IMG/VR virus record: IMGVR_UViG_2740892423_000018
DNA from: a virus
Taxonomy: Duplodnaviria > Heunggongvirae > Uroviricota > Caudoviricetes
DNA: 4,163 bases
Direction: 5' to 3' (one strand)
The translations under genes were made by a program, and so were the position numbers. The notes beneath the pieces are model-generated. The model had not been told where the DNA came from and ran no database searches. It saw only the letters and a list, made by a program, of their open reading frames with translations. Position 1 is the first letter of the stretch, and every line of letters begins with the position of its first letter. Of this stretch, positions 126 to 4,163 are shown one piece after another.

Positions 126-467
126 ATGATTACTAAAAATTTCCGACTGAATGCGCTGGCGAATAAGTATGCGTCGGCACTGTATAACCACATTACCTCC
201 ACCAGCGGCGGGGACTATTTCATGGTTGATGCGGACGGCCTCGCCGTCCGTGTGGAAATCGTCAATGGAGTAAAAGGCGTTCGCAGCCTGATCGATAGCT
301 ACACACTGGCAGCCATGAAAGTGTTCTACCCGCAGTGGGAAACCGTGGGGATCGAGCTTCTTGATCGTTGCGTCACTAAGGACGGATTGACTGACGTCGG
401 GCGCGAGATATGGCAAAGCATGATTAATGATATGGGCGCGACCGTGGCAGGAGGCAACCATGCGTAA
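126..467 (+). CDS. hypothetical small protein (113 aa), translationally coupled to the downstream primase gene
   Basis: ATG at 126 preceded by GAGGA (114-118) at 7-nt spacing. Protein-like composition with no low-complexity runs. Stop TAA 465-467 overlaps the primase start ATG 460-462 (ATGCGTAA). Same strand as all neighbouring genes. No recognisable motif. Confidence 0.6.
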   Translation: MITKNFRLNALANKYASALYNHITSTSGGDYFMVDADGLAVRVEIVNGVKGVRSLIDSYTLAAMKVFYPQWETVGIELLDRCVTKDGLTDVGREIWQSMINDMGATVAGGNHA

Positions 468-3219
468 TATCGACCTTATCCGCGAAGTGACCAGCGCCGC
501 AGCAGGGCGCTGGCCTTATGTGCTGGCTGGATTGTCTATCGACGTGCCTGATTCATCGCGCCGCCATTCTCCATGCCCTGCATGTGGTGGAAAAGACCGT
601 TTCAGATTCGACGACAACGGGCGCGGTAGCTTTATCTGCAACCAGTGTGGCGCTGGTGACGGGCTGGATTTAATCAAGCGGGTTAACAACTGCGACACTA
701 CGGAGGCGGCACAGCTTGCCGCTGACGTGCTGGGTATTGATTACCGGGCAGCGCAAACCGACCCGGTGGCAGCGAGCCATAGAAGAGAGCAACTGGAAGC
801 TGACCGCCAGCAGCGTGAGCAGGAGCGCCAGAAACAGGCAGCAGAGGACGCAGAGCAGCGAAGGGCTACGTTTGCCCGTCTGTATGCCGGAATGCGCCAG
901 AGTGTCACACAGGGCGAATCTGATTACCTGCAATCAAAAGGGCTGACCGGGTTTAATTACCCGGTTATGTCTGATGGTTCGCTACTCCTGCCGCTGGTGG
1001 ATGAATCCGGCGCAGTAGTGGCGGCGCAGACCATCACGCCGCAGGGAGATAAACGACTCCTGACAGGTTCAGCAAAGCGCGGGGCATATCACGCCGTAAA
1101 CGCGCCAGAATCGCCGCAGAGCGTTTTAATTGCCGAGGGGCTGGCGACGGCCCTTTCAGTTCACCTGATGCGCCCGGACGCGCTGGCAGTGGCAGCAATT
1201 GACGCGGGCAACCTGCTACCCGTTGCCGAAGTGATGCGCCGGAAGTATCCACAGGCACAAATAATCATCGCCGCAGACAACGACCACCACCAAAACGGAG
1301 AAGCCAATACAGGCAGGGAGGCCGCAGAGAAAGCCGCCTTGTCCGTGGCTGGATGGGTGGCACTGCCGCCGACAGACTACAAAGCCGACTGGAACGACCA
1401 CCACCAGCAAAACGGGCTGGAAGTCGCTACGGCTGCGTTTAACGACTCGATGTACCAGATTCAAGGGGAAGCCGTTAAACCACGATTGCAGGCCATTGAG
1501 GGCGGTAAAACTGACCATCCAGAGAAAGACCCACTAAAACCCCACATTGAGAGCCGAAAAGATGGCGTTTTCTGGGTAACGCCGAAGGTGGACAAGGAAA
1601 GCGGGGAGATCATCAACGCTGAAAGCTGGTTATGTTCACCGTTGGAGGTTATCGGCACGGGACGCGACGACAAAGATCAGTATCTTATTATCTCATGGCT
1701 GGCATTCGGTGCAGGCATACGGACAACAGCGGCTATCCCGCTGGCTGATATTGGCGAGCGTGAAGGCTGGCGCACCCTGAAAGCTGGTGGCGTCAACGTC
1801 ACAACGAAAAACAGCCTACGGGCGATTCTTGCCGACTGGTTACAGCGAAGCGGCTCGCGTGAATTGTGGCGCGTTGCTCATGCTACAGGCTGGCAGTGTG
1901 GGGCATACATCATGCCGGACGGGGAAATCATCGGCACACCTCAGCGGCCTGTTTTGTTCAGCGGGCGCAGTTCAGCCGCTGCCGGGTATACCGTAGCAGG
2001 AACGCCTGAAAGCTGGCTTAACAGTGTTGCGCGGCTGGCATACGGCAACTACGCGATGATGACAGGCATCGCCGCAGCACTGGCAGCGCCATTAATCGGG
2101 GTGGCAGATCGTGACGGATTCGGAATTCATTTTTATGAGCAATCGAGCGCCGGGAAAACAACCACGCAGAACGTGGCGAGCAGTCTTTACGGCAACCCTG
2201 ATGCCTTGCGCCTGACGTGGTATGGGACGGCGCTGGGGCTGATAAACGAGGCCGCCGCCCACAATGACGGGCTGATGCCGCTGGATGAAGTCGGACAGGG
2301 CGCAGACCCGATAAGCGTTTCTCAGTCTGCCTATGCCCTGTTTAACGGCGTGGGGAAATTGCAGGGAGCAAAGGAAGGAGGCAACCGGGATCTGAAACGC
2401 TGGCGCACCGTGGCAATCAGCACCGGGGAAATGGATTTAGAAACGTTCATCGCCACCGCAGGACGCAAGACAAAAGCGGGGCAACTGGTGCGACTGCTGA
2501 ATATCCCGCTGAGTAAGGCGGTGCGCTTTCATGAGCACCAGACAGGGAAAGATCACGCCGACGCGCTGAAAGACGCTTACCAGCACCATCATGGCGCTGC
2601 CGGGCGGGAGTGGATTAGATGGCTTTCAGACCACCAGCAGCAGGCGATTGATGCCGTTCGTGAGTGTGAAGCCCGATGGCGAAGTCTAATCCCTGCTGAC
2701 TATGGGGAACAGGTTCACCGTGTAGGGGCGAGGTTCGCCATTCTGGAGGCCGCTTTACTGCTGGGTGGCGTGGTTACTGGCTGGGATGCTCAAACGTGCC
2801 GTGATGCGATACAGCACAGCTACAATGCGTGGTTGCGTGAGTTCGGCACGGGGAACAAAGAGCACCAGCAGATTATTGAGCAGACGGAGGCGTTTTTGAA
2901 TGCCTATGGGCTGAGTAGATTCGCGCCGCTGGGTTATGACCCGCGCGATTTACCCATCCGTGATTTAGCCGGGTACAGGAAGAAGGGGAACCACGACGGC
3001 GACCCGATAATTTTCTACACCTTCCCGGCAACATTTGAGCAGGAGATCGCACGGGGTTTTAATGTCAGGCAGTTTGCCGAAGTTCTCAAGAATGCAGGAA
3101 TGCTAACACCACCAACGAGCGGGCGAGGTTATCAGGGGCGGGTAAGGGAAGGAGGGCGGCAAATTCGCGTTTATGTGCTCAACTTCATGGATGAGGAAAG
3201 CAGCCAGCCAGAAGAATAA
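460..3219 (+). CDS. primase/helicase-like replication initiation protein: N-terminal Cys4 zinc ribbon + TOPRIM (DnaG/P4-alpha-type) primase core + C-terminal P-loop NTPase region
   Basis: Open frame 427-3219. Preferred start is ATG 460 (MRNIDLIREV...) because AGGAGG at 449-454 sits 5 nt upstream; the ATG at 427 has no SD and would overlap the upstream ORF by 41 nt. Zinc ribbon CPAC...CNQC encoded at nt 574-648. TOPRIM glutamate motif IAEGLATA (nt 1129-1152, resembling the EGYATA motif of P4 alpha and plasmid primases) and DxD motif IIAADNDHH (nt 1261-1287). Walker A-like SSAGKTTT (GKT at nt 2152-2160) and Walker B-like LMPLDEV (DE at nt 2284-2289). Stop TAA 3217-3219. Confidence 0.88.
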   Translation: MRNIDLIREVTSAAAGRWPYVLAGLSIDVPDSSRRHSPCPACGGKDRFRFDDNGRGSFICNQCGAGDGLDLIKRVNNCDTTEAAQLAADVLGIDYRAAQTDPVAASHRREQLEADRQQREQERQKQAAEDAEQRRATFARLYAGMRQSVTQGESDYLQSKGLTGFNYPVMSDGSLLLPLVDESGAVVAAQTITPQGDKRLLTGSAKRGAYHAVNAPESPQSVLIAEGLATALSVHLMRPDALAVAAIDAGNLLPVAEVMRRKYPQAQIIIAADNDHHQNGEANTGREAAEKAALSVAGWVALPPTDYKADWNDHHQQNGLEVATAAFNDSMYQIQGEAVKPRLQAIEGGKTDHPEKDPLKPHIESRKDGVFWVTPKVDKESGEIINAESWLCSPLEVIGTGRDDKDQYLIISWLAFGAGIRTTAAIPLADIGEREGWRTLKAGGVNVTTKNSLRAILADWLQRSGSRELWRVAHATGWQCGAYIMPDGEIIGTPQRPVLFSGRSSAAAGYTVAGTPESWLNSVARLAYGNYAMMTGIAAALAAPLIGVADRDGFGIHFYEQSSAGKTTTQNVASSLYGNPDALRLTWYGTALGLINEAAAHNDGLMPLDEVGQGADPISVSQSAYALFNGVGKLQGAKEGGNRDLKRWRTVAISTGEMDLETFIATAGRKTKAGQLVRLLNIPLSKAVRFHEHQTGKDHADALKDAYQHHHGAAGREWIRWLSDHQQQAIDAVRECEARWRSLIPADYGEQVHRVGARFAILEAALLLGGVVTGWDAQTCRDAIQHSYNAWLREFGTGNKEHQQIIEQTEAFLNAYGLSRFAPLGYDPRDLPIRDLAGYRKKGNHDGDPIIFYTFPATFEQEIARGFNVRQFAEVLKNAGMLTPPTSGRGYQGRVREGGRQIRVYVLNFMDEESSQPEE

Positions 3220-3244
3220 TCTTTTTTCACATACGTAGTTTTAG

Positions 3245-3271
3245 TGTTGTCTCTGTTGTCTTTGTTGTCTC
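3245..3271. repeat. left triple-iteron block TGTTGTCTC-TGTTGTCTT-TGTTGTCTC (left arm of a 27-bp inverted repeat)
   Basis: Three head-to-tail 9-mers. Exact reverse complement of 3478-3504. Confidence 0.85.
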
Positions 3272-3316
3272 ATTTTGTAAGTTACATTGATTTATAAGGA
3301 TTTTATTTTAATTTCT
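3272..3316. other. AT-rich tract between iteron groups; candidate DNA unwinding element
   Basis: attttgtaagttacattgatttataaggattttattttaatttct is strongly AT-biased and lies between the left triple block and the direct iterons. A second AT-rich tract (ctatttttgtttatatacaaaaaaat, ~3505-3530) follows the right block. Confidence 0.4.
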
Positions 3317-3410
3317 GAGACAACATTGAGACAACATTTAGCCATTTTGAGACAACAGGGCGAACGTGTGTTTTTAGTCCGGCAGGCAGTGAGACAACAT
3401 TTATGCCGGG

Positions 3411-3442
3411 TGAGACAACACGAAATTGCAAATGTTGTCTCA
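3411..3442. repeat. inverted repeat TGAGACAACA-(12 bp)-TGTTGTCTCA built from two iterons in opposite orientation
   Basis: Arms 3411-3420 and 3433-3442 are perfect reverse complements; spacer cgaaattgcaaa (3421-3432). Confidence 0.8.
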
Positions 3443-3477
3443 GCAAAACCCAGACGTGGCGCGGCCTGTAGAGCCGT

Positions 3478-3504
3478 GAGACAACAAAGACAACAGAGAC
3501 AACA
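3478..3504. repeat. right triple-iteron block GAGACAACA-AAGACAACA-GAGACAACA (right arm of the 27-bp inverted repeat)
   Basis: Exact reverse complement of 3245-3271, including the variant middle unit. Confidence 0.85.
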
Positions 3505-3607
3505 CTATTTTTGTTTATATACAAAAAAATCTGGCGAAGGTGTCCCACAATAAGACGGTGCCGGGCAATCTTCATTAGCAAAACTAATAATTCGAGGTAT
3601 TCGCAAA

Positions 3608-4069
3608 ATGACAGCACAGATATCAGCCTACGGGCGGCTGGTGGCAGATCCCCAGACCAGAACGACAAACAGCGGCGGCAGCATGACAATGGGGCGTTTA
3701 GCGGTGGCACTGCCTTGCCATGCAGCAGAGGGCGGAGAGGTTACTTTCTGGCTGGGCGTGGTGGCATTCGGCAAACAGGCCGACGCACTGGCAGGACACG
3801 TTAAAGGCGATTTAGTCAGTGTTGCCGGAGCGATGCAGGTCAATCAGTGGGCGGGCAAGGATGGCGGTACACAGCAGGGGTATCAGGTAGTAGCCGACAG
3901 CGTGATCAGCGCCAGAACGGTACGCCCCGGCGGGAAGCGGGCCGAGTCAGTCAAAGCAAGTGGAGCCAGCAGGGGCCACGAAACGCAATCCGCGCCGGGA
4001 TGGGAGCTATATAACACCCCTGATGATTTTGACCAGCGCCCACCATTCGACGATGAAACGCCATTCTGA
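3608..4069 (+). CDS. ssb: single-stranded DNA-binding protein (SSB-like OB fold with acidic C-terminal tip)
   Basis: 153 aa. N-terminal region aligns by eye with E. coli SSB: ISAYGRLVADPQTRTTNSGG vs [20 protein letters not shown], and WLGVVAFGKQADALAGHVKGDLVSVAGAMQVNQW vs [35 protein letters not shown]. Gly/Ser/Pro-rich linker, then tail ...DDFDQRPPFDDETPF resembling the SSB tip DDDIPF. GAGG at 3594-3597 lies 10 nt upstream of ATG 3608. Stop TGA 4067-4069. Confidence 0.82.
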   Translation: MTAQISAYGRLVADPQTRTTNSGGSMTMGRLAVALPCHAAEGGEVTFWLGVVAFGKQADALAGHVKGDLVSVAGAMQVNQWAGKDGGTQQGYQVVADSVISARTVRPGGKRAESVKASGASRGHETQSAPGWELYNTPDDFDQRPPFDDETPF

Positions 4070-4080
4070 GGGGGGTGAAC

Positions 4081-4163
4081 ATGGTAAACGACAGCAAAGC
4101 TGAGGATCTGGAAGCAAAAGGGCTGTACCGACGCGCCGCCGCGCGATGGATGGAAGTCATGCT
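4081..4163 (+). CDS. 5' end of a small downstream gene (partial), possibly a PerC-family-like regulator
   Basis: ATG 4081 preceded by GAGGGGGG (4068-4075) at 5-nt spacing, overlapping the ssb stop. Translation MVNDSKAEDLEAKGLYRRAAARWMEVM runs off the window. The RRAAxRW-type N-terminus resembles, from memory only, PerC/Pch-like small regulators of enterobacterial prophages and islands; not verified. Confidence 0.45.
   Translation, partial: MVNDSKAEDLEAKGLYRRAAARWMEVM

Follow-up and report, generated by a model that had tools for sequence, protein, structure and literature searches.

What is the function of the twelve short repeats that follow a primase-helicase gene in a 4,163-nt stretch of viral DNA (IMG/VR record IMGVR_UViG_2740892423_000018, Caudoviricetes; the window, by which we mean the whole stretch)? 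A prediction made from the letters alone, referred to here as the original prediction, had seen in the non-coding region just 3' of this gene, pri, a candidate replication origin with an unrecognised iteron. Taking together the array, its relatives and the protein encoded beside it, we consider it probable (about 0.85) that positions 3220-3530 are the replication origin of a Gram-negative phage-inducible chromosomal island (PICI) located between yicC and dinD, and that this origin is read by the island's own primase-helicase. The comparative evidence supports initiator-binding iterons just 3' of pri, and the proposal was essentially right; it is moderately less novel than suggested, since the origin design has been published for PICIs and for the Staphylococcus aureus pathogenicity islands (SaPIs).

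Layout and phasing of the repeat array

Matches to the 9-mer GAGACAACA with at most one mismatch number twelve in the window, every one of them within 3245-3504; in 200 dinucleotide shuffles the mean was 0.91 and the maximum four, and twelve were never reached (0/200). Ten of the twelve are exact copies, while the central copy of each outer triplet reads AAGACAACA, with one mismatch. Sites on the minus strand start at 3245, 3254, 3263 and 3433 and those on the plus strand at 3317, 3328, 3349, 3391, 3412, 3478, 3487 and 3496, so that the array consists of three inverted tandem sites, a 45-bp spacer, five direct sites, one inverted site (3433, the single inner site in this orientation), a GC-rich spacer and three tandem sites. 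It begins 26 bp past the pri stop codon (3217-3219), an offset that is alike in the relatives, and the 9-mer has no copy outside the array in 30 kb of E. coli context.

The number of copies and the spacings of 11, 21, 42, 21, 21 and 45 bp given by the original prediction were correct; its description of a helically phased 12-iteron array applies to the six inner sites alone, because the outer triplets are unphased 9-bp tandems. For the six inner sites the Rayleigh resultant is R=0.994 at 10.5 bp (optimum period 10.55), a value matched by none of 20,000 random placements, and helical phasing is retained in the relatives (R 0.92-0.99). All twelve sites together give R=0.80, with the right block shifted from the common phase by about one third of a helical turn. 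An inverted repeat of 27 bp arises from the two outer triplets and can be extended to 54 bp at 80% complementarity (3219-3272 / 3477-3530). The proposed extended consensus also held in part: the 10-bp form TGAGACAACA fits 8 of the 12 sites, and the trailing 'tt' is found at some sites only. Between sites 3 and 4, the spacer 3272-3316 has 7 G/C in 45 bp (16% GC), with 40-bp windows at 17.5-22.5% GC.

The features of the window are as follows, with the strand in brackets (a dot where none is assigned).

460-3219 (+): pri-rep gene, 919 aa, predicted fused primase and self-loading initiator helicase
3136-3150 (+): codons of residues 893-897 (G-R-V-R-E), proposed iteron-specificity determinant
3223-3238 (+): conserved non-iteron block TTTTTCACATACGTAG directly past the stop codon, with one relaxed DnaA-box match at 3223-3231
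3245-3271 (-): left iteron block, three tandem 9-bp sites GAGACAACA, AAGACAACA, GAGACAACA; most full-length loci have it at this offset, +24 to +30 from the stop codon
3272-3316 (.): AT-rich spacer of 45 bp, proposed melting site from its composition profile, with a conserved core TTGATTTATAAGGATTTTA kept across repeat types
3316-3357 (+): three direct sites (starts 3317, 3328, 3349; spacings 11 and 21); every relative array listed likewise has spacings of 11 and 20-21
3391-3441 (.): accessory sites, direct at 3391 and 3412 and inverted at 3433, in helical phase with the core direct sites and missing or decayed in many relatives
3442-3477 (.): GC-rich spacer AAAACCCAGACGTGGCGCGGCCTGTAG..., kept across repeat types in 12-site loci, containing a weak 5-bp hairpin flagged by the terminator scan at chance level
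3478-3504 (+): right iteron block of three tandem 9-bp sites, repeating the left block in inverted orientation
3505-3530 (.): second AT-rich conserved block CTATTTTTGTTTATATACAAAAAAAT, upstream of ssb
3608-4069 (+): ssb, island single-stranded DNA-binding protein (SSB; Pfam SSB, E=5e-14)
4081-4163 (+): start of a PerC-family regulator gene that runs past the window end (Pfam PerC, E=1e-10; RefSeq annotation in the island of E. coli TKEC21-59)

Repeat switching and the candidate reader of the repeats

Relatives were collected by a scan of one genome per species, which yielded 76 loci across Enterobacterales; the full-length set consists of 48 aligned primases (the window and 47 loci, 986 alignment columns). 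Within the 300 bp downstream of these 48 primases, tandem inverted sites lie at about +26, +35 and +44, followed by the AT-rich spacer and by direct sites at about +98, +109 and +130, often with more sites at +172, +193, +214 (inverted), +259, +268 and +277. Loss of the iterons from relatives that keep the gene, which would have spoken against an origin, is not the general pattern: the site geometry is kept in about 60 related loci and the spacing is the same across genera. About ten repeat types occur in all. Seven different 9-mers are found among the 48 full-length loci, namely GAGACAACA (6 loci), TGAACCAAC (32 loci), TGAACCGAC (5 loci), ATAACCCGT (2 loci) and TACCCGACC, TGACACACT and GGTCGGTTT (1 locus each), and partial-match loci add about three more (ATAACCCAC, TGGGATAAG/GGGATAAGT).

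From one repeat type to another the iteron sequence is replaced at every site, while the non-repeat blocks common to the aligned origins persist (TCACAT(A/G)CG, TTGaTTTATAAGG, CTGGCTGG, AAAACCCAG..TGGCGCGG and CACTATTT.TGCTTATATA). Compared with L016, a locus of the same repeat type, the window is identical at 107 of 108 repeat columns and at 65% of spacer positions. Compared with L010, of a different type, the spacers are 68% identical and the repeat differences are nearly all at 9-mer positions 3-4, which match at 0 of 12 sites, while positions 2 and 5-8 match at 11-12 of 12. Since the repeats are better conserved than the spacers and are replaced at all sites, the iterons are best read as selected binding sites that switch in concert.

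Judged by its domain matches, the 919-aa protein is a DnaG-type Zn-ribbon/TOPRIM primase joined to a DUF927 helicase (MCM-like, of the SaPIbov1-Rep/Cch type) and to a predicted C-terminal winged helix. Pfam places a primase Zn ribbon at 34-69, Toprim_3 at 222-319 and DUF927 at 367-645 (E=7e-49), and the motifs C39..C63 of the Zn ribbon, E226, D273xD275, Walker A (562-567, SSAGKT) and Walker B (605-610, LMPLDE) are present. The DUF927 AAA+ helicase is followed by a helical linker and then by the predicted winged helix at about 838-909. Similarity to P4 alpha is restricted to residues 7-331 (Zn ribbon and TOPRIM, 35% identity), and Pfam gave no D5_N or Pox_D5 match in the protein. The best PDB sequence matches are SaPIbov1 Rep (8tch_A, E=4.9e-7, query 471-815) and Cch of the staphylococcal cassette chromosome mec, SCCmec (5dgk_A, E=0.005); a PDB sequence search with the last 119 residues alone returned no match. 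An AlphaFold2 model of residues 640-919 has a mean predicted local distance difference test score (pLDDT) of 78, and of about 90 in the last domain, where a helical bundle precedes beta-beta-helix-helix-beta-beta; in a fold search with this predicted model the last ~87 residues match a winged helix solved bound to DNA. By sequence and by predicted fold, the initiator is homologous to SaPIbov1 Rep and Cch. In the literature, these DUF927 helicases are described as self-loading initiators: 6-12 iterons, which lie just past the gene and surround an AT-rich region, are recognised by the C-terminal winged helix, and the initiator is probably two hexamers.

Only 4 of the 986 alignment columns distinguish the GAGACAACA loci (6) from the TGAACCAAC loci (32), and they are residues 893, 894, 895 and 897, which read G-R-V-(R)-E in the former and R-K-S-(P-R)-I in the latter. 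In the model, residues 893-897 make up the first strand of the final beta-hairpin (E254-258; pLDDT 88 over the 10-residue block), and each remaining repeat type has its own hairpin sequence. Two loci illustrate this well: L016 is 76% identical overall, yet its hairpin and repeat are the same as in the window, and L048 is 87% identical with near-identical hairpin flanks, yet it differs at exactly residues 893-897 and in the repeat. We therefore propose, from this covariation, that residues 893-897 may determine that GAGACAACA is recognised and not GAACCAACA, which is the TGAACCAAC type written in the same register.

Among ten loci that match the C-terminal part only (from about residue 250, 350 or 510), eight show an iteron array, the exceptions being L052 and the truncated L068; five of the eight combine the RKS-P-I hairpin with TGAACCAAC, and six have a full-size ~700-aa open reading frame (ORF) whose N-terminal part has no match to the query. 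Loci with residues 1-394 only, fused to D5_N helicases, carry the unrelated repeats TATCCCTAC and CTGTTCACC. To judge from these loci, the origin goes with the helicase and C-terminal half and not with the primase half. The neighbouring proteins do not track the repeat type, as the upstream ORFs have either no discriminating column or a 97%-identical copy in the other group, and SSB and PerC are missing from many loci. The comparative data strongly support the distinct initiator-origin specificity pair that had been suggested, through the geometry kept in ~60 loci, the concerted repeat switch and the four correlated residues of the C-terminal hairpin.

Two other proteins were considered as repeat binders and rejected. 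PerC showed 11 discriminating columns, which we regard as a sampling artefact because 3 closely related loci were compared with 8 and PerC is missing from most loci. For AlpA, the TKEC21-59 (L001) and L004 proteins are 74% identical despite unrelated origins; the L001/L083 pair shows 36% identity.

The loci also display several departures from the common pattern. In Cedecea davisae (L060 5857-6170) the array is mixed, with a TGAACCAAC core and a right half that is a decaying GAGACAACA-type copy, and in two Klebsiella sp. loci (L017 and L021), within the first 140 bp past the pri stop, 2 of 6 sites are TGAGGCAAC, intermediate between TGAACCAAC and TGAGACAAC; these arrays perhaps capture recombination, or a specificity switch, in progress. 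The left tandem block of L064 (+29 to +91 past the pri stop) has seven 9-bp copies in an otherwise normal core origin, which is repeat-number variation by slippage. A second architecture, also with 12 sites, is found in L019, L028, L043, L050 and L057 (2 tandem inverted sites, AT-rich spacer, 4 direct sites spaced 11, 21 and 21, 3 inverted, 3 tandem); several repeat types are found with it, among them TGAACCAAC in L043, so that architecture varies independently of repeat type. Within pri itself there is a domain-shuffling boundary at residues ~350-394 (window ~1510-1640): the Zn-ribbon/TOPRIM half is fused to DUF927 or else to D5_N/DUF5906/Pox_D5 helicases, and several loci match the DUF927 and winged-helix half only, some of them within the full-size ORFs mentioned above.

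The island, the proposed origin and its rivals

In E. coli strain TKEC21-59 the array lies inside an island of about 12 kb between yicC and dinD. The gene order is tyrosine integrase, hypothetical, AlpA (PF05930), hypothetical, AntA/B antirepressor, DUF4222, ash, icd-like, three small genes, the TOPRIM/DUF927 protein, the array, SSB, PerC and a few more, with almost all genes on one strand. By its annotation this is the gene order of a Gram-negative PICI, and the island has the integrase, AlpA, mostly unidirectional genes, size (10-20 kb) and specific att site of the PICI context, with no genes for phage tails or lysis; a search of L001 with the att core GAGCAGATTCAA found the left copy only, with one mismatch, and no right-hand copy. 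The reference PICI EcCIRM13514 is given at the yicC-dinD site (Table S1, Fillol-Salom et al. 2018, PMC6092414), and its record shows the same backbone. EcCICFT073 has the same order of DUF4222, pri, gap, ssb and perC, and ssb is downstream of pri in all three reference PICIs compared (EcCICFT073, EcCIRM13514 and EcCI042), with a small hypothetical gene between them in EcCICFT073 and EcCI042. Among 5,426 complete E. coli genomes, 33 carry the intergenic region at 99.7-100% identity, and in every case it is chromosomal; relatives of the pri 3' end occur in ~13% of the complete genomes (731/5,426), and 33-39 of the 731 carry the GAGACAACA allele.

From the homology to the SaPI Reps, a sequence of events can be proposed. 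Induction by a helper phage would lead to excision of the island and expression of the rightward operon, and the winged-helix domains would bind the 10-bp sites TGAGACAACA. Two opposed sets of three sites would clamp the 45-bp spacer 3272-3316, which would melt and receive the helicase rings; the fused TOPRIM domain would then prime, a host polymerase would extend and the island SSB would coat the single strands. The right half (3391-3504) would offer six further sites, as a second loading pad or a cis enhancer, dispensable in many relatives.

The division into two halves comes from the relatives. In natural forms with six sites, the left triplet and three direct sites stand on either side of the AT-rich spacer and nothing else is present, and we take this unit as the putative core origin; one such form, of the TGAACCAAC type, belongs to an EcCIMP1-like island that encodes the same protein family and lies at proA, beside vat. 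For EcCIMP1 itself, excision and transduction by phage Kapi1 have been shown (PMC11773190). The right half appears accessory, since many loci lack it or have it in a reduced or decayed form or with another repeat type (L015, L023 and L060). In 12-site loci its sites are perfect and switch type along with the core, which suggests that they are under the same selection as the left sites. The D5_N-type origin of EcCIRM13514 (L081 9068-9296) also has 12 sites, arranged 2|AT|1+3+3+1+2, and that of EcCICFT073 (L082 7011-7236) has 10 sites at up to one mismatch and 2 degenerate ones counted by eye; the recurring numbers of 6 and 12 would fit one or two hexamers.

Several points weigh against the origin reading as it stands. 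The AT-rich DNA is off-centre, with 3 sites to its left and 9 to its right, and the role of the right half, as second loading pad or cis enhancer, is guesswork. The winged helix is a prediction, from a model whose predicted template modelling score (pTM) is 0.48 for the whole 280 residues. The related islands deposited as circular plasmids, described below, are error-prone long-read assemblies, perhaps of excised circles and not of replicating episomes. Finally, the hairpin codons are only ~100 bp from the array, so that linkage during recombination could inflate the correlation between hairpin and repeat; however, the differences are limited to 4-5 residues between conserved flanks, next to homologous origin backbones, which argues for co-evolution rather than hitch-hiking.

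The alternative that departs least from a replication origin is that the left six sites and the AT-rich spacer alone are the origin, while 3391-3504 is a copy-control or incompatibility element (by titration or 'handcuffing') or a cis enhancer like crr of P4, the second iteron cluster of that element, which lies downstream of the alpha gene. Many relatives have the 6-site core only, the right half is of another repeat type and decaying in L060 and reduced to remnants in L023, and its own conserved GC-rich spacer suggests a distinct sub-element. This refines our explanation rather than replacing it, and we hold it to be rather unlikely: the right sites of 12-site loci are perfect and switch type with the left, and the presence of 12 sites in EcCIRM13514 and of 10 plus 2 degenerate ones in EcCICFT073 fits two hexamers.

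Readings of the array as something other than an origin fare worse. The initiator binding sites of iteron plasmids often serve as operators too, and the array, placed between two co-oriented genes and followed by the AT-rich conserved block 3505-3530 just upstream of ssb, might mainly be an operator through which the C-terminal domain of the primase-helicase, or another island regulator, controls ssb-perC and the downstream genes or autoregulates. This is very improbable, given that promoter and terminator signals are not above chance (one match of each kind, the shuffle expectation, and no sigma-70 promoter match in 3505-3530), that the genes after the six-site forms vary (ssb, perC or others), that AlpA and PerC do not track the repeat type, and that the position, the opposed sites around an AT-rich core and the helicase homology match experimentally tested origins (PMC6092414, PMC9371898). 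A packaging (cos/pac) site is a thing that PICIs need somewhere, and a partition site is conceivable from the phased repeats of the array. Plasmid centromeres such as parC of R1 likewise contain phased short repeats; nevertheless, the annotation of L001 has no ParA/ParM/ParB/ParR or terminase gene nearby, the repeat type covaries with the helicase C-terminal hairpin and the location and layout match tested PICI origins, so that either function is hardly credible. As for repeats without function, left by slippage or duplication in an intergenic spacer, tandem triplets can indeed expand, as the seven copies of L064 show; the conservation data (repeat columns 99% against 65% for spacers, the same spacing across genera and all 12 sites switching together) have already refuted this reading, and we give it practically no weight.

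Other signals were searched for in the same region and discarded. Rfam at E<=1 returned two plant microRNA-precursor matches only (27.5 bits, against a gathering threshold of 122), which arise because of the long inverted repeat, and no tRNA was found in the array region. The ORFs 3287-3553(+) and 3303-3710(-) have no Pfam match above cut-off, and in homologues the open frames are anywhere between 45 and 93 codons long. The single relaxed DnaA-box match (3223-3231) compares with 0.30 expected and with at least one in 52 of 200 shuffles. On visual inspection, the conserved AT-rich core departs from the consensus of an integration host factor (IHF) site. The non-iteron blocks AAAACCCAG..TGGCGCGGCCTG (3442-3477) and TCACATACG (3223-3238) are conserved across repeat types and may be host-factor or priming signals.

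Comparison with known origins and further observations

PICI and SaPI origins lie immediately 3' of rep, with iteron sets flanking AT-rich DNA, and 6-12 iterons are bound by the C-terminal winged helices of Rep (PMC6092414, PMC9371898, PMC7581432). The sites on either side of the AT-rich DNA are oppositely oriented in both (PMC9371898, PMC6092414), and for EcCICFT073 a pri-rep-ori segment drives plasmid maintenance, the region immediately 3' of the replication gene being the origin (PMC6092414). The island studied here shares with Gram-negative PICIs the backbone int, alpA, ..., DUF4222, pri, ori, ssb, perC and, with EcCIRM13514, the yicC-dinD site; its putative origin is likewise immediately 3' of pri, with iteron sets flanking an AT-rich stretch. 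It differs in the initiator, which is TOPRIM plus DUF927 in the window, of the D5_N/DUF5906/Pox_D5 type (superfamily 3, SF3) in EcCICFT073, EcCIRM13514 and EcCIATCC25922, and a RepA-family helicase in EcCI042. It also differs in the repeats (GAGACAACA as opposed to CTGTCTACC and TGTTCACC in the reference PICIs) and in the site arrangement, 3|AT|3+2+1+3 where EcCIRM13514 has 2|AT|1+3+3+1+2.

The SaPI Rep-ori systems (SaPIbov1 Rep, PDB 8TCH; SCCmec Cch, 5DGK) have a homologous Rep helicase, and the 12 or 6 sites found here agree with their 6-12. Their iterons are 5-6 bp long, in contrast to 9-10 bp in the window; SaPIbov1 has a separate primase of the archaeo-eukaryotic (AEP) type, whereas the window protein has a DnaG-type TOPRIM primase fused to the helicase; and the AT-rich region is near the centre in SaPIs but off-centre in the 12-site form of the window, whose host is Gram-negative.

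P4 is a satellite element as well, and its alpha protein combines primase, helicase and C-terminal origin-binding function in one polypeptide, the last of which is predicted in the window protein. The layout of P4 and PICI origins had been invoked in the original prediction: iterons do flank AT-rich DNA 3' of pri, as in PICIs and SaPIs, but the protein is P4-like only at 7-331. Alpha has a D5-like SF3 helicase and the alpha C-terminal domain; the window protein has DUF927, and because its helicase and C-terminal domain are of the SaPIbov1-Rep/Cch type, the closest systems are the PICI/SaPI origins. The motif differs from the P4 octamer, as had been noted: the P4 type I iteron is TGTTCACC, arrays of which are found in EcCIRM13514 and L072, and that of the window is GAGACAACA. 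P4 has two separated cis elements, ori and crr, the latter named as a cognate site of alpha (PMC6092414), whereas the window has one array, outside which the surrounding 30 kb contain no copy of the 9-mer. As a separate observation, the origin of EcCIRM13514 uses exactly the P4 octamer TGTTCACC.

Iteron plasmids (pPS10, RK2, R6K and F) resemble the window in having phased direct repeats beside an AT-rich unwinding element and a winged-helix initiator (predicted in the window), and the repeats probably also determine incompatibility. Plasmid Rep is not a helicase and recruits host DnaB, often with DnaA, while the window initiator would be both a helicase (Walker A/B) and a primase; iteron plasmids need functional DnaA boxes, of which the window has one relaxed match at chance level.

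The kind of element, a PICI/SaPI origin, is thus already established, and what seems to be new is the GAGACAACA allele with its matching protein loop. We found no published text on an origin of the TOPRIM-DUF927 family or on the GAGACAACA repeat, in a search that could not reach the content of figures (e.g., Figure 2a of PMC6092414, with repeat sequences); a full-text search with the repeat strings gave, among the matches listed, unrelated ones (microRNAs, primers and aptamers) and no PICI paper. Initiators of the D5_N or RepA type, with other repeats, are found in the four reference E. coli PICIs inspected. The general picture of PICI replication is unchanged; if the origin is read as proposed, initiator-origin specificity would decide which satellite islands coexist and replicate in one cell, and island annotation would become easier, as the origin could be called from the repeat pattern.

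A wider possibility, which we put forward tentatively and do not favour over its negation, is that the family comprises about ten mutually orthogonal initiator-origin pairs on one scaffold, in which ~5 hairpin residues match 2-4 bases of the 10-bp site, the 6 or 12 sites correspond to one or two hexamers and the copies are rewritten together, with L017 and L060 as snapshots. If true, the recognition code of a self-loading helicase, and a change of origin specificity without loss of function, would become directly testable.

Some related islands are deposited as circular 'non-mobilizable plasmids', from Raoultella (L002, 17.8 kb) and from K. pneumoniae (L003 and CP031371.2, 19-22 kb). All three carry AlpA, and L003 also has an annotated integrase; these records may represent excised or replicating episomes. 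Frameshifts in their pri genes are typical of uncorrected long reads, and these copies were excluded from the protein comparison. Enterobacterial PICI sequence, at 85-95% protein identity, is also present in assemblies labelled 'Chryseobacterium sp. 18061' (L009) and 'Paenibacillus oleatilyticus' (L075, a 394-bp contig with coverage 0.96), and its occurrence under Bacteroidota and Firmicutes labels is likely contamination or mislabelling.

The window is mosaic, with a junction at the pri start codon. The DNA from 460 onward is 97.5% identical to the TKEC21-59 island, while the part upstream has no match to it; positions 1-454 are 96.5% identical to another E. coli record, and a 113-aa ORF at 126-467 has no Pfam match. 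A nucleotide search of the whole window against phages gave no match. A 67%-identical copy of the helicase and winged-helix half (residues 350-912) lies in a record deposited as Klebsiella phage P12620-1 (H57, 106.5 kb) at 99050-100753.

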